Positions 1,327 to 64,000 of a stretch of 64,000 nt of DNA are shown here, one piece after another. The position numbers and the translations under genes are program-made. The notes under the pieces were generated by a model. It was given only the letters and a program-made list of their open reading frames with translations, had not been told where the DNA came from and searched no databases. The stretch comes from an uncultured Anaeroplasma sp. Lineage in GTDB: Bacteria > Bacillota_I > Bacilli_A > Acholeplasmatales > Anaeroplasmataceae. Every line of letters begins with the position of its first letter. The stretch's first letter is position 1. Location: contig CAMEJG010000007.1 in the NCBI GenBank assembly GCA_945919465.1, positions 1,099-65,098 on the forward strand. The letters run 5' to 3'.

Positions 1327-3222
1327 ATGAAGGAAACAAAAGAATTTAAAACTGAAACAAAACGTTTATTAGATATGATGATTAATTCAATTTATACTCA
1401 TAAGGAGATATTCTTAAGAGAATTAATTTCAAATGCTAGTGACGCAATTGACAAAAGACATTATATGTCATTAACTAATACAAATATTGCTGATAGCAAT
1501 TATAAAATTTTAGTAGAAGCTGATAAGGAAAATAGAACTCTTACTATTACTGATAATGGTGTTGGTATGACTGAAGAGGAACTAGAGAGTCATTTAGGTA
1601 CTATTGCAAAATCAGGAAGTAAAGAATTCCTAGAGGCAGTAAGTAAAGAGAATACACCTGAGGTTGATATTATTGGTCAATTTGGTGTTGGATTCTATTC
1701 AGCATTTATGGTAGCTAAAAGAGTAGATGTATTAACTAAATCAGTATCTGATAATACTTCTCATTTATTTAGTTCTGAAGGATTAGAATCATATACTATT
1801 GAGGATAGTCAAAAGGATGATTATGGTACTAAGATTACTCTATATTTAAGAGATAATACAGAAGATGATAATTATGATGATTATCTTGATGAATATCGTA
1901 TTAAAGAATTAGTAAAGAAATACTCTGATTATGTTAGATATCCTATTATGACTTGGGTTACTAAATATGATCCAAAGGATGAAAATGAAGATAAAGATGA
2001 TGAAAATAAGGAACCTAAAACTCATTTAGAATTAGAAACTATTAATTCTATGCTTCCTATTTGGAAGAAAAATAAGAGTGAGGTTACTGATGAGGAATTA
2101 AATAATTTCTATAAATCTAAATTTATGGATTATCAAGATCCAATTACCTCAATTCATGTAAATGTTGAAGGTATGCTTACTTATACAGCATTATTATTTA
2201 TTCCTAAGAAGCCTTTTTATGATTTCTATTCTGATAGAAATGAAAGAGGATTACAATTATATACAAAGGGAGTATTTATTCTAGATAAATGTAAGGAATT
2301 AATTCCTGAATATTTAAGATTTGTTAAAGGCTTAGTAGATTCTAGTGATTTAAGCTTAAATATTTCTCGTGAAATGCTACAAGAGGATAGAGCTATTAAG
2401 AAGATAGCTACAAATGTAGAAAAGAAGATTTTAGCTGAGCTTTCTCGTATGTTAAAAAATGATAGAGAAAAATATTTAGAATTCTTCAAGGATTATGGTA
2501 TTAATCTAAAATATGGTTTATATGAAAACTATGGAGAAAAGAAGGATTTATTAAAGGATTTAATTATATTCAATAGCTATAATACTGATAAGCCTATTAC
2601 ATTTAGTGAGTATGTTGAGGCTATGAAGGAAGGCCAAAAGGATATTTACTATGCAATTGGTAAGAATAAAGAAGTAGTAGAAAAGCTTCCTCAAATGGAT
2701 TTAGTTAAATCTAAAGGCTATGATGTATTAATTCTATCTGATGATGTTGATGAATTTATGATTCAAGTATTAAAGAATTATAATGATCATAACTTTAAAT
2801 CAATTAATTCTCAGGATTTAGATTTAATAGATGAAGAAGAATCAAAAAAGATTGATGAACTAAAAGAAACAAAGAAGAGCTTACTTGAAAAAGTAAAGGA
2901 AGCACTTCCTGGAGTTAAGGATGTAGTATTATCAAAGAGATTAGTAGATGCTCCATGCTGCTTAGCTAGTGATGGTGAGATTTCATTTGAGATGGAAAGA
3001 GTTCTAAAACAACAACATTCAGAAGTTAAAGCTGAGCGTATTTTAGAATTAAATCCAAATCATAATGTATTTAATAAGCTTGAAGAAGCATATGATAATG
3101 ATAAAGCATTAGGAGATAAATATGCTAGATTATTATATACAAATGCTTTACTTCAAGAAGGTATCTTACCAGATGATCCTAAAGCATTTAGTGAAGCTTT
3201 ATGTGAATTATTATTAAAGTAA
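1327..3222 (+). CDS. htpG: Molecular chaperone HtpG (Hsp90)
   Basis: Motifs YTHKEIFLRELISNASDA, DNGVGMT, LGTIAKSG and IGQFGVGFYSAF; 631 aa. Confidence 0.98.
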   Translation: MKETKEFKTETKRLLDMMINSIYTHKEIFLRELISNASDAIDKRHYMSLTNTNIADSNYKILVEADKENRTLTITDNGVGMTEEELESHLGTIAKSGSKEFLEAVSKENTPEVDIIGQFGVGFYSAFMVAKRVDVLTKSVSDNTSHLFSSEGLESYTIEDSQKDDYGTKITLYLRDNTEDDNYDDYLDEYRIKELVKKYSDYVRYPIMTWVTKYDPKDENEDKDDENKEPKTHLELETINSMLPIWKKNKSEVTDEELNNFYKSKFMDYQDPITSIHVNVEGMLTYTALLFIPKKPFYDFYSDRNERGLQLYTKGVFILDKCKELIPEYLRFVKGLVDSSDLSLNISREMLQEDRAIKKIATNVEKKILAELSRMLKNDREKYLEFFKDYGINLKYGLYENYGEKKDLLKDLIIFNSYNTDKPITFSEYVEAMKEGQKDIYYAIGKNKEVVEKLPQMDLVKSKGYDVLILSDDVDEFMIQVLKNYNDHNFKSINSQDLDLIDEEESKKIDELKETKKSLLEKVKEALPGVKDVVLSKRLVDAPCCLASDGEISFEMERVLKQQHSEVKAERILELNPNHNVFNKLEEAYDNDKALGDKYARLLYTNALLQEGILPDDPKAFSEALCELLLK

Positions 3223-5098: not shown

Positions 5099-6490
5099 AT
5101 GCAAAACGATTTCTATCAAGAAATTAAGGCTCTTATTTTAGATAAAAATATTTCTAATTTAGAGTTACTTAATCAGCTTGAAAACTATCACGATAGTGAT
5201 ATTGCCGATGTTTTAGAGGATTTAACAAAGGAAGAAAGATTAAATCTATATCAAAAAATTGGTGTTGAAAAAACCTCAGATATATTTGAATTCTATGAGA
5301 ATGTAGAAGAATATATTGATGAACTAGAACCTGAATTTGCAGCAGATATAGTTGAAAGAATGGACTCTGATGATGCGGTTGAGATTCTTAATGAACTAGA
5401 AGAAGAGGACAAAGAAGAAATTATCAAACTAATGGAGCCTGAATCAAAAAATGAGGTTTTAAAGCTTGATAAATATGATGAGGATGTAATTGGTTCTTAT
5501 ATGTCTGATAATTACATTCTTATTGATTCAAATCAAACTATAAAAGAAGCAATGTCTACTTTAATAAAAATGGCAGGGATTCATGATAATATTTCAACAT
5601 TATATGTTGAAGATGAAAATAAGAAATTTTTTGGTGCTATTAGTCTTAATGATTTAATAGTTGCTAGAAAGGATGATAAACTAATAGATTTAGTAATGAC
5701 ATCCTATCCTTCATTTTATGATGATGAATTAATTGATGATTGCATTGAAAAATTAAAGGACTATGCTGAGGCATCAATACCAGTATTAAATAGAAATAAT
5801 GAAATAATAGGAGTTATTACTTCTGATAATGTTATCGATGCTACTGAAGATGTAATGGAAGATGATTATGCTAAGCTCGGTGGTTTAAGTGAGGCTGAAG
5901 AATTAGATGAATCAATTTTTACATCAGTTAAAAAGCGTATTCCCTGGCTAATATTATTACTATTTTTAGGATTTGTTGTATCAACTGTAACTGGTATTTT
6001 TGAAAGTGTAATTGCTGTAATTCCAGTTGTAGTATTTTTCCAATCAATGGTATTAGATATGGCAGGTAATGTTGGTACTCAGTCACTTGCTGTAACTATT
6101 AGAAGCTTATCACAAACTGATGATCCAAATGAGAAGAAAAAACATAGAAAAACTATATTTAAAGAGTTTAGAGTAGGAATAACAAATGCATTAATTGTAT
6201 CCATTATTGCATTTATATTTATTTTTGTTTATTTATCAATTAAGCAGCAAGCTATTGCTTCTGATACTTTTAATATCTTTGAGGCATTAAAGGTTACATC
6301 TATTATTTCTGGAAGCTTATTAGTAGCAATGACATTATCTAGTTTAATAGGTACAGTATTCCCTATTTTCTTAAATGCAATTCATATCGATCCTGCAGTT
6401 GCATCAGGTCCCTTTATTACTACAATTAATGATATTATAGCTATTGTAATATATTATGGATTAGTATATTTATTATTTATATTAGTTTAG
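5099..6490 (+). CDS. mgtE: Magnesium transporter MgtE
   Basis: Acidic N-domain, CBS pair, KRIPWL, MAGNVGTQS and DPAVASGPFITTINDI motifs. Confidence 0.96.
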   Translation: MQNDFYQEIKALILDKNISNLELLNQLENYHDSDIADVLEDLTKEERLNLYQKIGVEKTSDIFEFYENVEEYIDELEPEFAADIVERMDSDDAVEILNELEEEDKEEIIKLMEPESKNEVLKLDKYDEDVIGSYMSDNYILIDSNQTIKEAMSTLIKMAGIHDNISTLYVEDENKKFFGAISLNDLIVARKDDKLIDLVMTSYPSFYDDELIDDCIEKLKDYAEASIPVLNRNNEIIGVITSDNVIDATEDVMEDDYAKLGGLSEAEELDESIFTSVKKRIPWLILLLFLGFVVSTVTGIFESVIAVIPVVVFFQSMVLDMAGNVGTQSLAVTIRSLSQTDDPNEKKKHRKTIFKEFRVGITNALIVSIIAFIFIFVYLSIKQQAIASDTFNIFEALKVTSIISGSLLVAMTLSSLIGTVFPIFLNAIHIDPAVASGPFITTINDIIAIVIYYGLVYLLFILV

Positions 6491-8949: not shown

Positions 8950-10197
8950 TTAAGCTTCATTATATTTCTTTTTTATATATAAATCAATCTCTTCAGCAAC
9001 CTTCTTTGTTGCGGCAACAGCCTCAACAACAGTTTTAGCTCCAGAAACTACATCACCAGCAGCATATACACCCTCTCTAGTTGTAGCTCCACCACTAGTA
9101 GTTTCAATTAATCCTCTCTTATTTGTATCAATTTGCTTAGTATTCTTTACAATATTAGATAATGCACCCTGGCCAATTGCGATAATAACAGAAGAAGATT
9201 CAAACTTATAAACATTTTCACTATCATTAATATATTCTATAGTTCCATCCTCATTAGTCTTTTGAATAACTGGTTCAACCATAATACCATCATCTAAAAT
9301 TTGAACGGTATTTAGATAATAATTCATCTTAACACCATCAACTATAGCTAAATCTAATTCTTCTTTTAATGCTGTAACCTCTTCAGGTCCTCTAAAGAAG
9401 ATAATATCCACCTTAGCTCTTGTTTTTCTTAGAATTGTTCTTGCTGCATCCATTGCTACATTACCAGCACCAATAATTACTACATGATCACCAAGCTCGG
9501 TATATGAATCAGGATTCTTTAAGTAATCAATTGCGAAATGAACATTTCCTAAAGTTTCTCCAGGTATTCTTAATCTATTTGGATTCCATACACCAGTACC
9601 AATAAATATTGCATCATAACCATCTCTAAACATATCATCAATAGTTATTGTAGGTCCAATTAATGTATTAGGTCTAAATAAAATACCTAATTCATTCATT
9701 CTAGTTAATAGCTTATCTAATAAACTCTTAGGTAATCTAAATTCAGGAATACCATATCTTAATACTCCACCAATTTTATCCTTAGAATCAATAATTGTTA
9801 CCTTATATCCTTTTTTAGCCATTATAATAGCTAGGGTTAAACCTGCAGGACCAGCACCAATAATTCCTAATCTATGACCATTAGATGGTTGAGCTTCTAA
9901 TTTTGCCTTTTCAAGATAAAAAGTAGAAATATATGTTTCAACCTCATAGAATTTTATAGGAGCTCCTTTACGATTTAATACACAATGTCCCATACAATTC
10001 TTTTCATGAGGACAAATTAATGAACATAAGGCTGATAATGGATTATTATCAAAAAGCTTTTCACCAGCTTCATCCATTTTTCCATCTAAAAACATTTGCA
10101 TAATGATAGGAATATCTGTATGAACTGGACAACCCTCCTTACACATTGGCTTTTTACATTTTAAGCATCTTTGAGCTTCATTAATTATATCTGCCAT
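8950..10197 (-). CDS. NAD(P)-dependent Fe-S flavoprotein oxidoreductase, GltD/SudA/NfnB family
   Basis: RCLKCKKPMCKEGCPV, CSLICPHEKNCMGHC, IGAGPAGL, IGAGNVAMDAAR and GVYAAGDVVSGAKTVVEA. Confidence 0.9.
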   Translation of the reverse strand: MADIINEAQRCLKCKKPMCKEGCPVHTDIPIIMQMFLDGKMDEAGEKLFDNNPLSALCSLICPHEKNCMGHCVLNRKGAPIKFYEVETYISTFYLEKAKLEAQPSNGHRLGIIGAGPAGLTLAIIMAKKGYKVTIIDSKDKIGGVLRYGIPEFRLPKSLLDKLLTRMNELGILFRPNTLIGPTITIDDMFRDGYDAIFIGTGVWNPNRLRIPGETLGNVHFAIDYLKNPDSYTELGDHVVIIGAGNVAMDAARTILRKTRAKVDIIFFRGPEEVTALKEELDLAIVDGVKMNYYLNTVQILDDGIMVEPVIQKTNEDGTIEYINDSENVYKFESSSVIIAIGQGALSNIVKNTKQIDTNKRGLIETTSGGATTREGVYAAGDVVSGAKTVVEAVAATKKVAEEIDLYIKKKYNEA

Positions 10198-53976: not shown

Positions 53977-55035
53977 GTGAAGGTGGCAATAATTGGTGCT
54001 GGAGCTTCAGGCTTAATGCTTTCAAGAATATTAACTGAAATGAATATTTCTTATACTTTATTTGAAAGAAAAAAAGCAGGAAGAAAGCTACTCGCAAGTG
54101 GAAATGGCAGATGTAATATTTCAAATATAAATATTGATTCTAATTCTTATTTGAATAATAGCTTTGCTTATAATCTAGTTAAAAATAATCAAAAAGAATT
54201 ATTTGATTTATTTAAAAAATTAAATATATATACCTACTCCGATAACGAAGGTAGATTATATCCTATTTCAGAATCTAGTCAATCAGTATATAATATTCTA
54301 ACTGAAAAAATTAATAATATAGAATATATTACTATAAATGAAATAAATAAAATAAATAATAAATATTATCTAAATAAAATATATGGTCCTTTTGATTATG
54401 TAGCCATCACAATAGGCTCAAATGCTTCAATTAATGAAGAATATAGCTATAATTTATTAGATAATATCGGTGTAAATTATAATGAATTTAGACCTTCTTT
54501 AGTTGGATTTAAATTAAAAGAAAAAACTAAAGAAATATCAGGAGTAAGACAAAAATGTCTTATTAAGCTATTAGATAATAATAAAATTATCTACTCTGAA
54601 AAGGGAGAAATAATATTTAAAAATGATGGTATATCAGGAATATGTATAATGAATGCATCAGCATTTTATAATCATTACCCTAATAAAAAGAATATATTAT
54701 TATCAATAGATTTTTTAAATGGTATCAAATATAATTCATTATCATCAGTATTAAAGCCTGATTTATTAAACTATATTAATAAATATAATTTAGATCCAAC
54801 TAATTTAATATTTAATATTATAGATACTTATGATATCAAAAATGCTCAGGTTGGCTATGGTGGAATTAGTTTAAATGAAGTAAATAATGATCTATCCTTT
54901 AAAAAAGATAATAATATTTATTTTGGTGGAGAGGTATTAGATTGTGATGGTGTCTGTGGTGGCTATAATCTAATGCTAGCTTTTTGTTCTGCAATAGTTA
55001 TTTCAAGGAGTATATATGAAATATCAAATAAATAA
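53977..55035 (+). CDS. NAD(P)/FAD-dependent oxidoreductase, HI0933/YhiN family
   Basis: IIGAGASG, GRKLLASGNGRCNISN, EGR.YP, AQV..GG and GEVLDCDG.CGGYNL. GTG at 53977 fits the SD. Confidence 0.9.
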   Translation: MKVAIIGAGASGLMLSRILTEMNISYTLFERKKAGRKLLASGNGRCNISNINIDSNSYLNNSFAYNLVKNNQKELFDLFKKLNIYTYSDNEGRLYPISESSQSVYNILTEKINNIEYITINEINKINNKYYLNKIYGPFDYVAITIGSNASINEEYSYNLLDNIGVNYNEFRPSLVGFKLKEKTKEISGVRQKCLIKLLDNNKIIYSEKGEIIFKNDGISGICIMNASAFYNHYPNKKNILLSIDFLNGIKYNSLSSVLKPDLLNYINKYNLDPTNLIFNIIDTYDIKNAQVGYGGISLNEVNNDLSFKKDNNIYFGGEVLDCDGVCGGYNLMLAFCSAIVISRSIYEISNK

Positions 55036-56557
55036 TTTTAAAGTTAATCCTAAGGATTTAAATAATTTAGAAAATATAATAAAAGCTAAATTAAAAATAA
55101 ATAATTTTAAATATAAAATATTATCTAAATCCATTGATGCAAGAGATAAAAATAATGTTTTTGTCATTTTTAAACTTCTAATTGATACTCCTTCATATAT
55201 TAAATATAAGGACATGTCTATATATGAGGAAAAAGAAATAAAAATTGATTATCCAAAATGGAATGATATTAGTCCTGTAATAGTAGGCTTTGGTCCTGCA
55301 GGAATGTTTGCAGCATTATATTTAGCAAGATGTGGGGCAAAGCCTATTATAATTGAAAGAGGAAAGAAAATAGAAGATAGAAAAAAAGATGTATTATTAT
55401 TTTTAAATGAAAAGAAGCTTAATGAAAACTCTAATGTTCAATATGGTGAGGGTGGCGCAGGAGCTTTTTCTGATGGAAAGCTTACTACTAATTTAAGAAA
55501 TCCTTTAATAAATTTCATATTGGAAGAATTTTATAAGCATGGAGCTAAAGAAGATATTTTATATGATGCAAAGCCTCATATTGGTACTGATTACTTGGAA
55601 ATTATAGTAAGAAATATTAGATTAGAAATAGAAAAGCTTGGAGGAAAATTTTATTTCAGTACAAGATTCATTGATGCGAAAAGAATTGATAATCAATTAT
55701 TTGCAGTTATAGAAAATGATAATAAAATAGAAATAAAAACTAACCATATTTTATTAGGAATTGGACATAGTGCTAAGGATACTATAAGACATTTATATAA
55801 TAATATGAATGTTAATATGGAACAAAAGGCCTTTTCTATGGGTGTTAGAATAGAACATTTAAAGGATAAAATAAATGAAGCTCAATATGGAAAATATAAA
55901 GACTATTTACCAGCAGCATATTATAATCTATCAGCCCATGATGAAAATAATAGAGGAGTATATACCTTCTGTATGTGTCCTGGTGGTTATGTTTTAGCAT
56001 CCACATCAGATAAAGATACTATAGTAGTTAATGGAATGAGCAATAATGATAGAGGTAATATTAATTCTAATTCTGCCTTATTAGTTGATGTAAGAACCAG
56101 TGATTATGATAAAGGTAATGTACTTGATGGAATTGATTATCAAGAAAAATATGAAAAATTAGCCTTTAATGCTTCAAAGGATTATAGAGCTCCATCTAAT
56201 TTAGTAAAAGAATTTTTAAACAATGAAATAGCAATAAAAGAAAGAAGCATAAAATCATCATATCCTCATGGACTTAATATGTGTGATTTATATACAGTGC
56301 TTCCAGATTATGTTGTTGAAGGATTGAAATTTGGTATTAGAAGCTTTGCGAAAAAAATACAAGGCTTTGATGATCCAGATGCAATATTAGTGGGAATAGA
56401 ATCTAGAAGCTCATCTCCAGTAAGAATATTAAGAGATGAAAATATGGAATCAAGCTTTAAAGGAATCTATCCTATGGGAGAAGGAGCAGGCTATGCAGGT
56501 GGTATTACCTCAGCAGCATTAGATGGACTTAAGGTAGCGATGAAAATATCTAAATAA
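55016..56557 (+). CDS. Uncharacterised FAD-dependent oxidoreductase (COG2509-like)
   Basis: VGFGPAG, SNVQYGEGGAGAFSDGKL, PHIGTD, YTFCMCPGG and GEGAGYAGGI.SAA.DG. Confidence 0.9.
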   Translation: MKYQINNFKVNPKDLNNLENIIKAKLKINNFKYKILSKSIDARDKNNVFVIFKLLIDTPSYIKYKDMSIYEEKEIKIDYPKWNDISPVIVGFGPAGMFAALYLARCGAKPIIIERGKKIEDRKKDVLLFLNEKKLNENSNVQYGEGGAGAFSDGKLTTNLRNPLINFILEEFYKHGAKEDILYDAKPHIGTDYLEIIVRNIRLEIEKLGGKFYFSTRFIDAKRIDNQLFAVIENDNKIEIKTNHILLGIGHSAKDTIRHLYNNMNVNMEQKAFSMGVRIEHLKDKINEAQYGKYKDYLPAAYYNLSAHDENNRGVYTFCMCPGGYVLASTSDKDTIVVNGMSNNDRGNINSNSALLVDVRTSDYDKGNVLDGIDYQEKYEKLAFNASKDYRAPSNLVKEFLNNEIAIKERSIKSSYPHGLNMCDLYTVLPDYVVEGLKFGIRSFAKKIQGFDDPDAILVGIESRSSSPVRILRDENMESSFKGIYPMGEGAGYAGGITSAALDGLKVAMKISK

Positions 56558-56638
56558 AAAAATTTCATTTTCTTTTATACATTATTAAATATTAGTTTTA
56601 TAATCTAGGTATCAATAATTAAAATATTTTAGAAAGAA

Positions 56639-59600
56639 GTGAATTTTATGAATAAAGGACTTAAATCCTATGCCAAACAGCTTAAAGGTCAAGTTGGTAA
56701 AATCAAATATAATATTAATTTAAATTTTAATGATTCAAATGTAATATTAGAAATACCTCTATTTAATACATTAGGTATAAACCCATTATCATTATCATTA
56801 ATCTATAATCATCAATCTAGAACTACTATTAATGAATTTGGTGCTGGTATAAAAACAAATTATGATTATAAGTATATAAAATCTCTTAAAAAAATAATAA
56901 ATCCAGATTTTACAGAGGATATATATACTGGATATCAACAAGCAGATCAAATATTATACCCAAATAAATATATTTATAGAAATAAAGATACTAATTTTGA
57001 TTTATATACATCAGTTAGAAGTGATGTAAATACTAATAATTTTTTATATGATCCATATAAAAATAAATATAATTTTGATAATAATACTAACAATTATATA
57101 ACTAAAATAGAATATATAAATGGTTTTGTAACTGATTATAAAGCTAATAATATATTATTAAATAATAATCAAGGAACTATAATAACTAAAGAAGAATTAG
57201 TATCTGGTTCTACTAAAAAAATAATATTATATGAATTAGAAAATAATATAGAAATATCAAGAGTAACCCTATATTATAATAATTCAACTAATAAATTATA
57301 TAATATTACATTTAAAGAAGATTATATTGATGAATATTATTTAACAATAAACAATAATAATATTAAAATATATAGTGAAAGAGATAAATATGCTATATTA
57401 ATTAATTTAATAGAAATAGATGATAATAATAAGAAAATAGAAATATATGAGGAATATTATGATTATTTCTTACAGGATGATGATTCATATGATGTTGAAT
57501 TAGATGGACAATATTTATTATATACAATTAATTTAAATCTAAATAAAACAGAAATAATAGATAAAAATAATAATAAAAGCTATATAAAATTTGATGATAG
57601 AGATTTACCAATATTAGAATATACAGATAAAAATGTATATATAAAGACAAGCTATGATAATGATAAAAAACTAATATATCAAGGTAATAGTGTTAATTTA
57701 CATGAGACAGTAGTATTAGGAGATAATAGCTTCACACATGTAGAGGCAATAAATGTAAATTATCAAAATACTACAATTTCTAATGATATATATACATTAG
57801 GTTTTAATCATAATATTAGTGTTAGCTATAATGATAATCAAATATCAAAAATGGGCTTTATTAAAGAAGCTAATGGCTTAAAGGATGATATTATTACAAT
57901 AATAACAATCCTTAAGCTAATAGCTAAAACAGAAAACTCCTCAGCTAAAATAAATATCTATTTATATAAGGATAATATAGATGTAATAAAAAAAGAATTT
58001 GATATATTAAATAATCAAATAATAAATGAAAAAGAATTAGTAATAGTAGGCTTTAAAGCTCCATCACCATATGATGAAATAAAAGTAGAAATAGAAAGCT
58101 ATTTAATTAACTATGAAATATCAGATATCATATTAACTGATATGCTATATGGTACATATTATTCTTATTCATCAGATAAGAGAAATATAATAAAAATAGA
58201 TAATGGAATTAATGATATATTATTAGGATATAGTAATAATATCATAGAATCAGAACTATCAACCTCAGGTAGTGAGACTATATATAAATATGATTCTAAG
58301 AATAATCCCATTATTAAAATGAATAGCTATGGAAATTATATAAAATATAATTATGATGAAAATACAAATCAAATATTATCAATTAATCCAAGCTATTCTA
58401 GTAATACTATATATGAATATGATTCAGTCAATAATGTAACAAAGATAAAAGAATATAAAAATATAAATGAATATGATGAGACTAATAATACCTATGATAA
58501 ATATCATAGAATAATTACTACATCTAAAAATAATCATAATTTTAATTATACCTATCAAAATGGAAGAATAGCTACTATTTCTGAGAATGGAAAAAATATA
58601 AATATTAATTATGATGATAAAGGCTTAATTAAAGAAATAATAACCAATAATCTTACATTTTATTTCATTTATACAAGAAAGAATATCTTATCATATTTAT
58701 CAATAAATAATAGAATGTTATTTGATAGATTTTATGATGATAATGATAATCTAATTAAGATTAAATATAGTAATGAAAATATTACTGATTTCATTTATAA
58801 TAATAATCTACTTACAGATATTAAATATAATAATTCAAATAGATTTAATATAGAATATGATAATTATTCAAGAATAACTAAAATCAATAATGAATTATTA
58901 AATATAGCTACTAATTATTATTATGATAATTATAATAGAATAAAAGAAATAATAGATAATAATAATCAAATTAAATATTTTTATAATGAAGAGAATAATT
59001 ATATAAATAAAAATATTAATATAAGAAATTATAATATTAATTATTCATATAATAATTATACAAATAGAAAATTATCATTATTTTCAAGATTAAGATATTT
59101 ATTTAATAATAGAGGCTATGTAGGAACCTTCTTTTTATCAGATACCTATTTAAGAGGAAAAAATAATGAAGAATATCTAATATATCCATCATCATTAAAT
59201 TTAAATAATATAAGATATATAGAAGGAATACCTCAATATAGTTTATTACTAAATCCTAATTTCTATATATCGACAAATAATACTACATCAGGCTCAATAG
59301 GCTTTTGGTATCAACAACCAGATTTTGATGAACATCTTATTAGCTCAAGAAGATATATTCTATTATCAAAAGAAAATAAAGATAATAATAATATTAGAAT
59401 ATATCTTAAAATAGAAGGCTATAAATTGAAATTATGCTTAAAAGTAAATAGTAATTTTTATGATTATGAAATGAGTGAAAGAGACTATACTAGCAATTGG
59501 CATTTTATTTCAATGAGCTATAGTATTAATTCAAATACATTAGCTGCATCAATTCAATTAGATAATTATATAAAAGATCAAACATTTAATTTACCTTATG

Positions 59601-61999
59601 AAATATCATTTACAGAAGAATGTTATCATATAGGAAAAATATATTCTGATGGAAATACTTATCTAAATTTAACAGGAAATATTACAGGAATAATAGAATC
59701 AATTGATACAAGATTAGATAATAATATATTATTAGAATATTATAATAAAACAAAGGATTGTTTTAATACTACAACAAATAATTCATCAATAGATTATCAG
59801 GTTAGTTCAATATCATTAGGAGTAGAGGATTATGATTTGATACCATTAGAGGGTTCAATTAATTCAATAAATGGATTAAAGCCTACTAATTACGAACATA
59901 AAGAAAAAATATATGATAAACCAAGCTTCTATGACTATAATGTAAATAAATATAGTTATGAAGCATTTGGAAATAGTTTAATTTATGAATTAGGAAATAA
60001 AGAAATAATAACATTAGGAATGATTATTAATTTTAATAAATTAAATGAAAGACAAACAATACTAGAATTAATTAATACTAGTAATATTACTTATGATATT
60101 GAATTATATGTTGATAGTGATAATTATATTAAAATTTTATATGATGATGTAGTAATAAATACAAATTTATTAATAGTATCATTAAATAATAATCATATTT
60201 GTTTTAATTTAAATAAATATACTAATAAAATAGAAATTAATTTAAGTATTAATACTAATACATATTCTAAAACAATAAATATTCCTCAAATATCATGGAA
60301 TATAAGAGTTATATTATTTGATAATTTTAATAATGAATATCCATTATTAGGAAATATAGAAAAGGTATTATATAGTAATACTAAAAATAATTTAGATACA
60401 CTATATAATTATTTATTTACAATAACTAAAACAAATGAAATTGATGATTTAGGTTATTTATATAAGAGTACTATTTATGAAGAACAAAGAAGTATTATTA
60501 GTAATAATTATGAATATACTAATCAATTAATAACTAAAGAAGTAATACATATTAATCAAGATTATAATAGATATTATAGCTATAGTAATAATAGAGTAAC
60601 TACTATTACTGATTCTACCTTTGGGAATAAGAGCTATAGCTATGATTCATTAGGTAGATTAATAAATGATAATGGCACTATTATTACTTATGATAATTTA
60701 GGTAATATAACAAATTATGGTAATAAAAGCTATAGCTATAATGGATATTTATTAACCTCTATAAATGGAGAAAATATTAGTTATTATAATAATTCATATT
60801 TAATAAAAAAATATGAAGATATGGAATTTAAATATGAAGGAAAAAGGTTAGTAGAGATTAAAGAAGACAATGATGAAGAAATAACATATTATAAATATTA
60901 TTATAATCTAGATGGATTAAGAATAAAAAAAGAAGTTATTACTGAATATAGTGATTATAGAGATAGTGAAGTTGAGGTAACACAATATTATTATGAAGAT
61001 AGTAAGCTTATATGTGAATATCGAAATGATTCATTAAGAATAGATTATTTATATGATATTAATGATAATTTATTTGGATTCATATTAAATGATAATAGAT
61101 ATTATTATATAAGAGATTGTATGCAAAATATCTTAGGAATTATTGATAATAATGGTAATATTATAGCAAAATATAACTACAATGGCTTTGGAAGGATAAT
61201 TAGTATTACAGGTAGTAATACTGCAATAGGTAGTCTTAATCCATTTAGATACAAAGGATACTATTATGATAATGATACTTATATGTATTATTGTAAGAGT
61301 AGATACTATAATCCTCTATGGTGTAGATGGTTAACACCAGATAGTGTTGATTATTTGAATCCTAATAATATTAATGGATTGAATTTATATATTTATTGTG
61401 GTAATGATCCAGTGAATTATTATGATCCTACAGGACACTTTGCGATAAGTGCATTAATAATTGGTTTAGCATTTGGTTTTGCAGGAACAATGCTAACAGA
61501 TATAATTGATGATGGTAAATTGTTTAATGGTAGTCAAGATTTTTGGGATTATTTTGGAAATACACTTGCTGGCGGAATTGGTGGATTGGCGGGGGCCTTT
61601 GGATTAAATATGCTTGGAAGTATGATTTTCTCTGCCGCTGGTGATACAATTGGTGGTCTAATAAGTGGAGATGTTAATTCTTGGGAGTCTTTTGGTCAAA
61701 CTATTGCGTTATCTCTTGGAATGTCAATTCTTTCGTCTGGAATATCTAAGGCAGTTAGCGATGCATTTGGTACTAGCCAATATAAAACTATCAGAGGTAT
61801 TTCTAAAAAAAATATTAAAGTTAATAATTATTTAAAAAATTTAACAGGCTCATATAAGAGGGCAAAAGTATCGGCGTTAAAAATTGGTGCTAACTCAATG
61901 GACGATTTTTTAAAAAGACTTAGTAGAACTACATCAAATGTTATTGCAACAGAAATATCAGGAAATATGGTCTCTACTTTTATTGGTATGTGGTTTTAA
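56639..61999 (+). CDS. RHS/YD-repeat polymorphic toxin with LamG-like inserts, RHS core and a Gly-rich hydrophobic C-terminal domain
   Basis: YD repeats; core NPFRYKGYYYD....YYCKSRYYNP...RWLTPD; cleavage motif DPVNYYDPTGH at 61424-61438, followed by a 186-aa C-terminal tail. Confidence 0.93.
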   Translation: MNFMNKGLKSYAKQLKGQVGKIKYNINLNFNDSNVILEIPLFNTLGINPLSLSLIYNHQSRTTINEFGAGIKTNYDYKYIKSLKKIINPDFTEDIYTGYQQADQILYPNKYIYRNKDTNFDLYTSVRSDVNTNNFLYDPYKNKYNFDNNTNNYITKIEYINGFVTDYKANNILLNNNQGTIITKEELVSGSTKKIILYELENNIEISRVTLYYNNSTNKLYNITFKEDYIDEYYLTINNNNIKIYSERDKYAILINLIEIDDNNKKIEIYEEYYDYFLQDDDSYDVELDGQYLLYTINLNLNKTEIIDKNNNKSYIKFDDRDLPILEYTDKNVYIKTSYDNDKKLIYQGNSVNLHETVVLGDNSFTHVEAINVNYQNTTISNDIYTLGFNHNISVSYNDNQISKMGFIKEANGLKDDIITIITILKLIAKTENSSAKINIYLYKDNIDVIKKEFDILNNQIINEKELVIVGFKAPSPYDEIKVEIESYLINYEISDIILTDMLYGTYYSYSSDKRNIIKIDNGINDILLGYSNNIIESELSTSGSETIYKYDSKNNPIIKMNSYGNYIKYNYDENTNQILSINPSYSSNTIYEYDSVNNVTKIKEYKNINEYDETNNTYDKYHRIITTSKNNHNFNYTYQNGRIATISENGKNININYDDKGLIKEIITNNLTFYFIYTRKNILSYLSINNRMLFDRFYDDNDNLIKIKYSNENITDFIYNNNLLTDIKYNNSNRFNIEYDNYSRITKINNELLNIATNYYYDNYNRIKEIIDNNNQIKYFYNEENNYINKNINIRNYNINYSYNNYTNRKLSLFSRLRYLFNNRGYVGTFFLSDTYLRGKNNEEYLIYPSSLNLNNIRYIEGIPQYSLLLNPNFYISTNNTTSGSIGFWYQQPDFDEHLISSRRYILLSKENKDNNNIRIYLKIEGYKLKLCLKVNSNFYDYEMSERDYTSNWHFISMSYSINSNTLAASIQLDNYIKDQTFNLPYEISFTEECYHIGKIYSDGNTYLNLTGNITGIIESIDTRLDNNILLEYYNKTKDCFNTTTNNSSIDYQVSSISLGVEDYDLIPLEGSINSINGLKPTNYEHKEKIYDKPSFYDYNVNKYSYEAFGNSLIYELGNKEIITLGMIINFNKLNERQTILELINTSNITYDIELYVDSDNYIKILYDDVVINTNLLIVSLNNNHICFNLNKYTNKIEINLSINTNTYSKTINIPQISWNIRVILFDNFNNEYPLLGNIEKVLYSNTKNNLDTLYNYLFTITKTNEIDDLGYLYKSTIYEEQRSIISNNYEYTNQLITKEVIHINQDYNRYYSYSNNRVTTITDSTFGNKSYSYDSLGRLINDNGTIITYDNLGNITNYGNKSYSYNGYLLTSINGENISYYNNSYLIKKYEDMEFKYEGKRLVEIKEDNDEEITYYKYYYNLDGLRIKKEVITEYSDYRDSEVEVTQYYYEDSKLICEYRNDSLRIDYLYDINDNLFGFILNDNRYYYIRDCMQNILGIIDNNGNIIAKYNYNGFGRIISITGSNTAIGSLNPFRYKGYYYDNDTYMYYCKSRYYNPLWCRWLTPDSVDYLNPNNINGLNLYIYCGNDPVNYYDPTGHFAISALIIGLAFGFAGTMLTDIIDDGKLFNGSQDFWDYFGNTLAGGIGGLAGAFGLNMLGSMIFSAAGDTIGGLISGDVNSWESFGQTIALSLGMSILSSGISKAVSDAFGTSQYKTIRGISKKNIKVNNYLKNLTGSYKRAKVSALKIGANSMDDFLKRLSRTTSNVIATEISGNMVSTFIGMWF

Positions 62000-62025
62000 G
62001 AATTTATAGAAAGGGATAATTATGC

Positions 62026-62760
62026 ATGAAAAAGAAAGTACCTTTTATATTAAGGGAACCCAATTTGGTGCCTAAAAACTTGAAAATAAGATTATTGTTG
62101 TTCTTACTTGTAAATGGAATACTATTAGCTTTATTTCCTATATTAGCAATTTTTATAAATTTTCCTTATGGATATTTATGTTGGATATTAATAGTATGCA
62201 TTGCAATATTGTTTAATATAAAGGCATATCACATTCATACAGAGCGTTATCCTTTAAATGATTATTTAGAATATCAATTTAATCCGTTGAAAGACGAGAT
62301 AAAAAAAATTGATGGAGAATTTGTTATTGATGTATTAAAAATTTCAAATAATGTATACAAAATTTTACTTAAAAATAAGATTTTATATTTTGATTTGAAA
62401 GGATGTATTTGTCCATTGACTGTTATTAGGGCATATTTAATAAGACAGTTTACAATTAGATATATCAATCAATATAAGTTAGTTTCAGATACGATGGGAA
62501 AAAATATTAATATTTTTAAATTATTTAAAGAGTGTGAAAATGTAATTTTATATTATAAAAAAGAAAATAAAGATAAGAAGTTTTACATTATTAAATCATA
62601 TGTAACCAAGATGAATTCTTTTATAAAGTCTATAAATGGTTATGGTTATGTATTTTGGTATATTTCTTATCATGGTATGAGCAAATATCATATGAAAGTA
62701 TCGGAAAATGACTTCATTGATAGAAAAAATACGTCTCCTACGCGCGTGGGCGTATACTAA
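62026..62760 (+). CDS. Putative immunity protein (two N-terminal TM helices)
   Basis: Lies 26 nt after the RHS stop, has its own SD and a hydrophobic hairpin; no recognised family. Confidence 0.6.
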   Translation: MKKKVPFILREPNLVPKNLKIRLLLFLLVNGILLALFPILAIFINFPYGYLCWILIVCIAILFNIKAYHIHTERYPLNDYLEYQFNPLKDEIKKIDGEFVIDVLKISNNVYKILLKNKILYFDLKGCICPLTVIRAYLIRQFTIRYINQYKLVSDTMGKNINIFKLFKECENVILYYKKENKDKKFYIIKSYVTKMNSFIKSINGYGYVFWYISYHGMSKYHMKVSENDFIDRKNTSPTRVGVY

Positions 62761-62888
62761 TAGCCCACCGATTGGGGATTAAATCCATTAAGTAGGATAA
62801 ATTAACCTTAAATATAAAACTCAATAGTTTAGGTTCTGCCTGATAGGGAGCTATACTAATAGCCCCTTAATCAGGCACTAAACTATTG
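62736..62888. other. GC-rich structured element with twin hairpins sharing a TATACTAATAGCCC apex
   Basis: TATACTAATAGCCC at 62753-62766 and 62852-62865; long stem CAATAGTTTAG..TGCCTGAT / ATCAGGCA.CTAAACTATTG; TCCTAC/GTAGGA closing stem. Confidence 0.7.
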
Positions 62889-62944
62889 TTTTAATTAATT
62901 TTTACACCATGAAATATATTAGTAGCTAGAGGTATAGAAGTAGT

Positions 62945-63297
62945 ATGATTGAATCAATATTATATAATGGTGGAATATATTGCAGATTATCCTTAGATGA
63001 TGGAAGTGCAGGAGAATTTGGAAGTATTCAAATACAAAAAATGATGCTGGAAAAATATTGTAAAGATAATCGCTATACTGTAAAAGAAGTATATATTGAT
63101 GATGGGTATTCAGGTCTTAATTTTTATAGGCCAGCTTTTAAACAATTATTATGTGATATAGAAGCTGGTAAAATCAATATTGTAATAACTTAAGACTTAT
63201 CAAGATTAGGTAGAGATTACCTACAAACAGGATATTACACTGAACAATATTTTCCTCTTCATCATGTAAGATTATCGCAATTAATGATGGTGTAGAT
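62945..63297 (+). pseudogene. Large serine recombinase (TnpX/TndX-like), N-terminal remnant
   Basis: GIYCRLS.DD, YIDDGYSG.NF.RP, then ITK-to-IT* nonsense at 63191. The frame continues DLSRLGRDYLQTGYYTEQYFP, a 1-nt deletion near 63272 precedes IAINDGVD, and the gene is then truncated. Confidence 0.9.
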
Positions 63298-63333
63298 ATT
63301 TACCGTCTTTAATATATCCTCAGCACTAAAAAA

Positions 63334-63387
63334 CTCAATTTTATTGACTTTTTTTATTTTGTTAGTCAAAAAATTGAGGCTATTTTT
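63334..63387. terminator. Imperfect inverted repeat, possible terminator
   Basis: CTCAATTTTT.TTGACT...AGTCAA.AAAATTGAG followed by a T-run. Confidence 0.5.
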
Positions 63388-63477
63388 TAATTTTTTAAAG
63401 TTTTTACTTATTTGTACTTTAATAAGATAGATAAAGATTCTTGTACGTTATTGTACTTTAGAGTTAAGATTATATTT

Positions 63478-63703
63478 CATAATTTACTTTATCTTTATAT
63501 ATATTTTCACTCCATGGAACTAAATCTTTGTAATCTACAGTCAATGGTCTACCAGTTTTATAATTTTTTCTAGACTGTTTTTTCTCTATATTCATCATCT
63601 AGAACAACATATGAAATACATAATTTAGCTATTTTATAGCACCAAGACCATATGCCTTAGTAGTTAATACTAAAGATATAATATTACGATTAACCTTAGC
63701 AGA
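63478..63703 (-). pseudogene. Degraded ORF fragment of unknown function
   Basis: Three protein-like segments in shifted frames: SAKVNRNIISLVLTTKAYGLGA / AKLCISYVVLDDEYREK / QSRKNYKTGRPLTVDYKDLVPWSENIYKDKSKL*. Confidence 0.3.
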
Positions 63704-63937
63704 TGATTTATTGAATATAAGGGAATTGCTTTATTATAAATAATGAAAGAATTTTTTTATAATTACATAATCATTTTTATGTAATTATAGCTACAGAGGT
63801 TATTATAGAAAATATATCATAAGCTAATGGGCAATTAACAATATGTGTAAAATTATGTAAATAATTGTAAAAAACTTTCATTATGGGTCTATTTATGGTA
63901 TAATCAACCTAAGTTTTTGGTAGTTGAGGTAAGAAAA

Positions 63938-64000
63938 ATGAGAAGAGAAGAATCCTGTGGTGCGATATTATTTACAAAAGAAGAAGGAAAAAGATTATAT
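63938..64000 (+). CDS. NUDIX hydrolase (Ap4A hydrolase-like), partial
   Basis: SD GAGGT; MRREESCGAILFTKEEGKRLY matches the E.SCGA(V/I) N-terminus of this family. Confidence 0.7.
   Translation, partial: MRREESCGAILFTKEEGKRLY

Follow-up and report, generated by a model that had tools for sequence, protein, structure and literature searches.

A pair of GC-rich hairpins separates a toxin-immunity cassette from a truncated serine recombinase gene near the end of the window, by which we mean the whole 64,000-nt stretch analyzed from an uncultured Anaeroplasma sp. (contig CAMEJG010000007.1). The hairpins lie within 62731-62888 and most probably belong to the class of nick sites cut by Rep_trans proteins, as known from inverted repeat II (IR-II) of the pT181 double-strand origin (dso) and from the origins of transfer (oriT) of MOBT relaxases. 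They would sit here as orphans on the backbone of a decayed integrative element, and we put the probability of this reading at about 0.78. The apex motif, the hairpin structure with its compensating conservation, the adjacency to Rep_trans genes in relatives and the recurrence behind immunity genes are direct observations. We infer the nicking itself, the cruciform, the element ends and any present-day activity. The hairpins would be leftovers of a mobile element, since decayed, of a kind that delivers toxin-immunity cassettes to the RHS toxin genes of a gut bacterium resembling Anaeroplasma. The parts of the hairpin pair are as follows.

62736-62797, + strand: hairpin 1 region, a three-way junction (DNA parameters) enclosing the nick hairpin together with a short inverted repeat (62776-62786)
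62743-62770, + strand: hairpin 1 core, GTGGGC-G-TAT-ACTA-ATA-GCCCAC, with the apex GGGCGTATACTAATAGCCC and a predicted nick CT'AA between 62758 and 62759
62822-62888, + strand: hairpin 2, a near-perfect stem-loop of 67 nt, with the apical part GGGAGC-TAT-ACTA-ATA-GCCCC, the apex GCTATACTAATAGCC and a predicted nick between 62857 and 62858
62915-62926, + strand: third nick-like motif TATATTAGTAGC, which has no hairpin and lies 18 nt 5' of the recombinase ATG (the version in the related locus L087 is TATATTAATAGC)

The 14-mer TATACTAATAGCCC is common to both hairpins (62753-62766 and 62852-62865), which bears out the identical apexes 99 nt apart that had been noted in the original prediction, made from the letters of the sequence. 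Base composition leads one to expect about 3e-4 exact copies in the window on both strands, compared with the two observed, both on the + strand. No further copy was found in the window with up to 3 mismatches, nor was a second copy of the element or a repeat family found within the 64 kb. Nine letters, CTAATAGCC, are shared between the window apex and the nick loop of pT181 IR-II, and these include CT'AA. The pT181 origin reads aaaaccggctactCTAATAGCCggtt across the loop and 3' stem of IR-II, followed by the IR-III repeat, with TACTCTAATAGCCGG as the counterpart of the window apex. Reps of the pT181 family nick in the loop of a conserved hairpin and bind an adjacent second repeat (PMC4797284), and the MOBT relaxases of ICEBs1, ICESt3 and Tn916 have a conserved nick CT'AA in a GC-rich hairpin loop that is identical to that of the Rep_trans dso (PMC9371924). 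The predicted cuts in the window, at 62758/62759 and 62857/62858, follow from the pT181 match and from this literature. Both window apexes carry a CT'AA-containing sequence, as part of TATACTAATAGCCC, at the hairpin tip. The hairpins are also GC-rich inverted repeats in AT-rich DNA, as is typical of such nick sites, with a GC content of 58% in the hairpin 1 core and 47% in the hairpin 2 apex, set against 22% in the flanking gene and about 25% throughout the window. The original prediction could name no family for the element; the nick-site hairpins of Rep_trans proteins (pT181 RepC and MOBT) now provide one.

Relatives tie the apex to Rep_trans genes. An exact scan for the hairpin 1 apex, using one genome per species, gave three real loci (L001, L002 and L003), all in Mycoplasmatota-like metagenome-assembled genomes (MAGs), plus one chance match in Nostoc. 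At all three loci the same 19-nt apex GGGCGTATACTAATAGCCC tips long hairpins whose stem sequences differ. L001 and L003 have a ribosome-binding site, which is conserved, and a gene of 373-374 aa 40-60 nt 3' of the hairpin, and the product of this gene matches Pfam Rep_trans and Rol_Rep_N (E 1e-26 to 1e-28), the architecture of RepC and RepD. PHROGs contributed only ‘replication initiation protein’ and ‘DNA helicase’. In L002 the hairpin with the 19-nt apex is an orphan. A further relative reached via the Rep protein, L006, has the variant apex CCGGCGTATTACTAATAGCCGG. L043 and L089, which were found through recombinase homology, contain same-apex hairpins directly upstream of Rep_trans genes. 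The adjacent cognate Rep_trans gene is present in L001, L003, L006, L043 and L089 and missing in the window. The Rep protein of L043 aligns with the RepSTK1 structure 4CIJ, including the Y-x-K motif with the catalytic tyrosine, and Rep proteins of the L001/L003/L006 clade share 34-38% identity with those of the L043/L089 clade. The two tandem hairpins of the window are of different subtype, hairpin 1 resembling L001-L003 in apex and arms, and hairpin 2 resembling L043 in its apex and its GTTTAG/CTAAAC outer stem.

Scanning viral contigs with the apex gave 0 matches, scanning metagenome contigs with the 3' arm of hairpin 1 gave six chance matches only, in unrelated GC-rich or coding DNA, and blastn found nothing in plasmid or phage DNA. 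L001 itself is a contig of 2.3 kb with higher coverage. In L003 (510-7930) and L006 the hairpin 1-type origin and Rep_trans gene are accompanied by an 87-aa ORF (open reading frame) and a UvrD/PcrA-like helicase, and this module adjoins genes for a membrane P-loop protein of 624 aa and a secreted protein of 611 aa with no family match. It is a different element of Mycoplasmatota MAGs, which may be phage- or plasmid-like.

Re-examination upheld the positions and features that the original prediction gave for 62731-62888, the near-perfect 67-nt stem at 62822-62888 included. Compared with dinucleotide shuffles, hairpin 2 is exceptionally stable (z of -7.8 under RNA and -8.6 under DNA parameters; 0/300 shuffles were as stable), and the element as a whole folds with z = -6.4 and -6.9 for the two strands. 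The three-way junction around hairpin 1, closed by TCCTAC (62736-41) and GTAGGA (62792-97), is the minimum free energy (MFE) structure with DNA parameters and lies 2.8 kcal/mol above the MFE with RNA parameters. Its closing helix is comparable in the DNA MFE of L087, and L042 recovers part of the lower stem only. The inverted repeat at 62776-62786, centered about 22 nt 3' of the hairpin 1 nick, may by analogy occupy the position of the Rep-binding repeat of pT181-type origins (IR-III, centered about 23 bp downstream); it is poorly conserved in L087 and L042. Among hairpins of the L043 type, the sequence of the 3' arm, GTTATCGCGGACTAAAC, is kept even where pairing with the 5' arm has been lost (L017), which would fit a putative Rep-binding site.

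Homologous leaders are found upstream of related recombinase genes. L087 contains hairpin 1, the spacer, hairpin 2, the third nick-like motif and the recombinase start with 90.5% identity from 62743 onward, and both apexes are intact. Its hairpin 2 stem has changed in a compensating manner (ctgcctga/tcaggca in the window versus gtgtga/tcacac in L087), with paired changes of C-G to T-A and C-G to G-C. In a second cassette of L087, a tip and immunity gene homologous to those of the window again precede a remnant of hairpin 2 type, in which GGCTATACTAATAGCC is intact. L042 is arranged like the window, with both apexes mutated and stems that still pair. Hairpin 2 with its apex motif, along with the leader, is also present in L098 and L097, and hairpin 1 was not seen in L098. 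The homologues of hairpin 2 in L042 and L098, like that in L087, show compensating changes in the stem. We had considered hairpin 1 to be a recent chimera, with a 5' arm like that of L002/L003 and a 3' arm like that of L001. This idea was dropped because L087 and L042 have the same imperfect arms, so the arrangement is old.

The original prediction had called for a covariation analysis. Because a MAFFT alignment of nine hairpin 2-type sequences placed the middle stem out of register, pairs were counted on five L043-type hairpins (L043, L089, L019, L035 and L017, with the window left out), using a specified structure, and a covariance model was used for the rest. In the five-hairpin set 93% of cells pair, compared with 31-45% when the partners are slid. 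Double changes occur at five pairs and the covariation score is 0.295 versus 0.11 (0/500 shuffles), thus the stems of these relatives do covary. The five hairpins were chosen by the apex motif, so that conservation of the loop is partly selected; the stems and the Rep_trans adjacency were not selected in this way. A covariance model from the same five hairpins, searched over 766 kb (the window and the loci), matches hairpin 2 of the window at 62826-62884 (31.6 bits, E 7.5e-5) and also recovers L087, L002, L003, L006, L097, L098 and the second L089 hairpin. The sole match outside known hairpins was in L052 (E 0.73), and several of the hairpins, being palindromes, also gave weak matches on the other strand.

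With the read-through N-terminus of the recombinase as query, 75 loci were collected, scanned for the apex motif and read for their ORFs. The recurring unit has the order toxin tip, immunity gene, nick hairpin, (Rep_trans), XRE repressor gene on the opposite strand, small ORF and large serine recombinase. All units examined have the hairpin behind their immunity gene (the window, L087 twice, L042, L019, L035, L043 and L089 twice), independent of whether a Rep gene is present in the unit. The original prediction had named recurrence behind different RHS tips or ahead of recombinases as support for its reading, and such recurrence is now seen after RHS and PT-HINT tips and before recombinases in other genomes; its suggestion of a mobile-element DNA signal tied to toxin-immunity cassettes and serine recombinases likewise holds as a recurring unit. 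The fuller relatives are arranged as follows.

L043: PT-HINT toxin, immunity gene, hairpin (1604-1686), Rep_trans + Rol_Rep_N gene, HTH_3 protein, 174-aa ORF and recombinase (Pfam)
L089: two to three tandem units, one with a Rep gene and one with the hairpin only
L035: two tandem units, neither with a Rep gene
L019: one unit behind an RHS toxin, with an intact recombinase (Resolvase, Recombinase, Zn_ribbon_recom, DUF4368) and a TIR-domain gene next to it

Downstream of the L043 unit lies an orphaned piece of PT-HINT toxin carrying a fused Colicin D domain, together with Imm64 (Pfam). An extra gene directly after the recombinase is present in L089 (2944-4776, a 610-aa protein) and in L019 (7656-9143, a 495-aa TIR_2/SEFIR protein by Pfam); the latter may be anti-phage cargo.

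The genes flanking the hairpins in the window, given below, fit a worn copy of this unit.

56639-61999, + strand: RHS polymorphic toxin gene of 1786 aa (ORF list), the C-terminal tip of which, from about 61400, is putative cargo of the element
62026-62760, + strand: immunity-type ORF of 244 aa, with no Pfam family, the last 8 codons and stop of which come from the 5' arm and apex of hairpin 1
62945-63300, + strand: large serine recombinase remnant with the N-terminal resolvase domain only (Pfam PF00239)

The public sequences closest to the window are contigs from gut metagenomes of pig and goat, and a MAG of an Anaeroplasma sp. (L015, 97% identity). Gut metagenome contigs over 61000-64000 are fragmented, and the homology of one contig begins at about 62746. 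Read depth falls past about 61400, the end of the conserved RHS core. The window tip and immunity gene are 97% identical to those of L015 and about 70% identical to the second cassette of L087, in which a 248-aa homologue of the immunity ORF follows the homologous tip. That the immunity ORF reads into the element, ending in SPTRVGVY* with its TAA stop (62758-60) inside the hairpin 1 apex, had been taken as a sign of an insertion or recombination join; the ending is real, but incidental, as the upstream ORF in L087 and L042 stops before hairpin 1.

The recombinase begins at the ATG at 62945, 56 nt past the stem end at 62888 as originally stated. Three-frame translations show it interrupted by an in-frame TAA (63191-63193), frameshifted near 63272 and cut short near 63300. 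Other copies, in gut metagenomes, have A at 63191 and an extra A after 63272, and so lack both the stop and the frameshift. Intact relatives of about 530 aa carry Resolvase, Recombinase, Zn_ribbon_recom and DUF4368 domains; intact copies are encoded at L019 5986-7596 and L089 8316-9914. N-terminal fragments recur in this family (window 62945-63300, L084 1162-1785, L087 1086-1427, L015 956-1276), and the best 120 database matches are all of 207 aa or fewer. Several fragments are true truncations fused to, or located before, toxin tips, and the codons at which they are cut differ (about 88, 107, 118 and 140), which suggests recurrent inactivation after integration. The public gene call P0017 (L015 1100-1110) translates a TGA in the recombinase pseudogene as Trp, in all likelihood an artefact of the code table selected for the L015 contig. 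Long ORFs of the window, such as the 1786-aa RHS gene, read cleanly under code 11. Adjoining the truncated recombinase, an AT-rich stretch (63300-63727) is about 90% identical to pig and goat gut contigs at a depth of up to 24-130, compared with only about 5-9 over the neighboring 62600-63000. This stretch is probably a repeated element and contains a 42-aa ORF on the minus strand (63470-63598). The closest recombinase relatives, intact or truncated (84% identity; L008-L014, L016, L054, L072, L075 and L084) have a different conserved GC-rich leader hairpin, ttgtaaacaggataagacgtgc...gcacgtcacctgttttaactggg, located about 100 to 35 nt before the recombinase ATG (for example L084 1055-1125). It lacks CTAATAG and begins right after varied upstream genes.

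The Rep, XRE and small-ORF genes of the fuller relatives are absent in the window. Because of this, and because the window has no Rep_trans gene and only a recombinase remnant, we regard its hairpins as orphan sites. Rep-less hairpin units also coexist with Rep-bearing units in a single MAG (L002 with L001/L006, and within L089), which further supports orphan status. The window hairpins would then be either relics or sites usable only by a Rep supplied in trans. In an intact element, the GC-rich inverted repeat would extrude as a cruciform on negatively supercoiled DNA of otherwise 22-25% GC, exposing ...TATACT'AATAGCC... at its tip. A Rep_trans dimer would cut between CT and AA and remain bound to the 5' end, the 3' OH would prime leading-strand synthesis with a helicase of the PcrA/UvrD type, and the next passage of the site would terminate the round and re-circularize the strand. 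The element itself would enter RHS or PT-HINT toxin genes at their conserved pre-toxin region and supply a new tip and immunity gene, the old tip being pushed downstream as an orphan.

Repeats flanking some of the fuller units indicate where such an element might end. The pre-toxin region of L043 (284-640) recurs at 5759-6115 with 86.6% identity, about 100 nt past the recombinase stop, and on either side TTTTAGRAATGG is where the homology begins. L019 has a repeat of 3052-3207 at 9166-9321. PT-HINT pre-toxin fragments stand directly after the recombinase in L043 (5759-6115), L035 (3304-4011 and 7112-7909) and L089 (10268-10747). From their sequences, these repeats may be explained by insertion of the element within a conserved part of the toxin gene, which brought in a new tip and immunity gene and displaced the old tip. 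The hairpin would therefore lie 1.3 kb inside the element, with apparent ends some 1.3 kb before it and 4 kb after it in L043, the best-preserved relative. The sharp start of homology in the toxin frame (TTTTAGRAATGG in L043) is a candidate crossover site for the serine recombinase, and candidate attL and attR sites of L043 fall at about 240-300 and about 5700-5780. Tentatively, and with somewhat less than even confidence, we propose a 5-6 kb integrative element of gut Anaeroplasmatales-like bacteria, equipped with a large serine recombinase and a Rep_trans rolling-circle module, that brings a tip and immunity gene site-specifically into the RHS or PT-HINT pre-toxin region, and in whose arrays Rep may also excise or swap cassettes between directly repeated nick hairpins. 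If true, the active toxin would be replaced and the old one orphaned, the joint in L015 described below would be an example of cassette excision or swap from one CT'AA to the next, and polymorphic-toxin diversification would have dedicated enzymatic machinery instead of relying on chance homologous recombination.

Several points weigh against the nick-site reading. Hairpin 1 by itself folds only marginally better than its shuffles (z -1.7 to -2.9). By tblastn, no Rep_trans gene is present in the 64-kb window, and with the recombinase dead no activity can be claimed here. Nicking is a prediction for every hairpin in the set, and no clear Rep-binding repeat was found. The L042 apexes, GTAATCTCATAGCCC and GGAATACTTTGTGGA, lack CTAATAG although the stems are kept, so that either selection on the nick motif is relaxed there or the stems serve another purpose. 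Relatives were first gathered by the apex motif, which makes the search partly circular and the conservation of the motif partly a product of selection; the position beside Rep_trans genes is independent of this. The element ends are deduced from one repeat per locus, and no empty site or circular junction was found. For L019, the one run that holds this locus gave only short, untrustworthy unitig joints when searched for excision or empty-site joints.

The nick motifs might instead be, or might additionally be, recombination joints, where Rep_trans or another enzyme cuts one CT'AA and rejoins it at another. DNA between consecutive hairpins would thereby be deleted, excised or swapped, which amounts to the cassette shuffling of the original prediction. 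The main support comes from L015, in which 97.3% identity to the window runs through 62764, the last base of TATACTAATAGC, and resumes at 62915 with 85%. L015 lacks 162 nt including hairpin 2, and the hairpin 1 motif (62753-62764) passes straight into the third motif TATATTAGTAGC. A simple deletion derivative of the window was rejected as the origin of L015, given that the two sides diverge unequally (97% versus 85%) and thus have different histories. The joint is exactly at the motif and connects the same cassette with a different recombinase lineage. Hairpins are directly oriented after each cassette in arrays, and strand transfer by a MOBT relaxase is documented (PMC9371924). However, a single such joint was seen, and the 12-nt direct repeats around a strong hairpin favor replication slippage or short-homology recombination, which needs no nuclease and could equally have produced the L015 joint; that Rep cut and rejoined the DNA between two nick motifs in L015 is doubtful. 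The other boundaries between cassette and backbone (about 62743 in the comparison with L087 and about 62735 with L042) fall at the left edge of hairpin 1 and not at the nick. Overall we consider recombination joints an unlikely alternative.

A role at the RNA level is less likely still. The hairpins could form an intrinsic terminator of the toxin-immunity operon, a structured 5' leader controlling the recombinase, or both. Hairpin 2 is followed by a T-rich tract, TTGTTTTAATTAATTTTT, that is conserved in L087 and L042, the L042 stems have been kept despite loss of the apexes, and a different GC-rich hairpin, also conserved, occupies this position in the leaders of closely related recombinases. 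Yet a simple consensus terminator scan does not call hairpin 2, no T run follows the L043-type hairpins, and neither the loop identical to a nick site nor the Rep_trans adjacency is accounted for. Rfam is no help to this account either, as cmscan over 62000-64000 with E up to 10 returned only a chance small nucleolar RNA match outside the element, and the protein-binding non-coding RNA entertained in the original prediction is unsupported for the same reason. Action of hairpin 2 as a terminator or recombinase leader is possible as a secondary function, and as such would be compatible with the nick-site reading.

It is very unlikely that the hairpins are the attachment (att) site (attL or attP) of the adjacent large serine recombinase, or part of it. 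In the window, L087, L042 and L098 they directly precede the recombinase gene, and the third nick-like motif, 18 nt from the ATG, coincides with the L015 joint. Recombinase genes of the TnpX/TndX type are often found at the end of their element, which also counts in favor. In L043, L089, L019 and L035, however, the hairpin is 1-2.4 kb from the recombinase with Rep, XRE and ORF genes between, and the repeats that mark the ends sit in the toxin gene and after the recombinase stop. The hairpins thus do not lie at an element boundary with the same core at both junctions; the L043 boundaries are placed at about 284 and about 5759 and its hairpin is at 1604-1686, so the attachment signal offered by the original prediction is not borne out. 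A perfect palindrome of 67 nt is moreover unlike the imperfect att sites of about 40-50 bp of serine integrases, and the identity of the motif to the Rep_trans nick site would go unexplained. ARAGORN found no tRNA or transfer-messenger RNA in the window, and therefore no tRNA-type att site.

A repetitive extragenic palindrome (REP) with its RAYT, a terminal hairpin of the IS200/IS605 or IS91 type, or a rolling-circle single-strand origin (sso) would also be a long, imperfect, intergenic and orientation-specific palindrome, but can practically be dismissed: no HUH transposase or RAYT is among the ORFs listed for 55000-64000, this is the only such locus in 64 kb, no insertion sequence, plasmid or phage DNA matches, and the conserved letters are those of a dso nick site and not sso motifs. 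What survives of the REP/IS200-like hairpin in the original prediction is a site for a single-strand nuclease, without the HUH partner and at a single locus.

If the nick-site reading is correct, an ordinary signal is found in an unusual place, and the surroundings are of greater importance than the signal itself. Nick sites of the pT181 type can be recognized by sequence alone, as GC-rich hairpins, in uncultured, very AT-rich Mollicutes-like gut genomes. The recurring unit suggests that the ‘orphan cassette’ architecture of polymorphic toxin loci is in part the work of a mobile element that has integration and replication functions of its own. Confirmation would make toxin-tip exchange experimentally tractable through excision, circular forms, Rep nicking and mobilization in trans, and would explain the many truncated recombinase fragments beside toxin tips in gut metagenomes.

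The nearest known system is the dso of the pT181 family (IR-II/ICRII and IR-III; RepC/RepD, PF02486), which shares the GC-rich inverted repeat in AT-rich DNA, the nick at the tip and CTAATAGCC. The Rep_trans + Rol_Rep_N gene adjacent in relatives is another shared trait, as is, in L003, a helicase of the UvrD/PcrA type beside the Rep gene. In pT181 the origin is inside repC, whereas in the relatives it is upstream of rep. The stems found here are far longer (up to about 30 bp), a clear IR-III was not found, the replicon is integrated in the chromosome with a serine recombinase, and the window has two tandem subtypes and no Rep.

The IR1 of MOBT oriT sites (ICEBs1 NicK, ICESt3 RelSt3, Tn916 Orf20) is similar in its CT'AA within a GC-rich loop, in its location on an integrated element and in the Rep_trans core of the enzyme, and MOBT relaxases also drive rolling-circle replication of the excised element. 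In contrast, MOBT relaxases have an N-terminal HTH where the Reps described here have Rol_Rep_N, and no conjugation genes were seen in the loci examined. The TnpX/TndX recombinases of Tn4451 and Tn5397 have the domain set of the intact relatives (Resolvase, Recombinase, Zn ribbon and DUF4368), and we are not aware of any link from those transposons to Rep_trans origins or to polymorphic toxins. The IME_oriTs, small integrative mobilizable elements of streptococci with a Rep_trans relaxase and a site-specific recombinase (PMC7563843), likewise pair Rep_trans with a recombinase on a small integrative element, and are a precedent for nick-site regions as places where elements meet. They target the oriT of integrative and conjugative elements, whereas the present family apparently targets toxin genes, carries toxin tips and uses a large serine recombinase with DUF4368.

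Orphan toxin-immunity arrays of Rhs, CDI and other polymorphic toxins (PMC3482391, PMC3150448) similarly consist of tip and immunity cassettes, with a piece of the core, downstream of a full-length toxin. Replacement of toxin tips is usually ascribed to recombination without dedicated machinery, recombinases being mentioned only beside polyimmunity loci (PMC3482391), and the literature searched contained no description of a serine-recombinase/Rep_trans element carrying RHS or PT-HINT tips. In the classical account such arrays arise by homologous recombination, whereas the units described here add a nick hairpin and a whole or decayed serine recombinase. The type of hairpin, then, is that of the known Rep_trans origin and oriT nick sites, and the toxin-tip-carrying element around it may be new.

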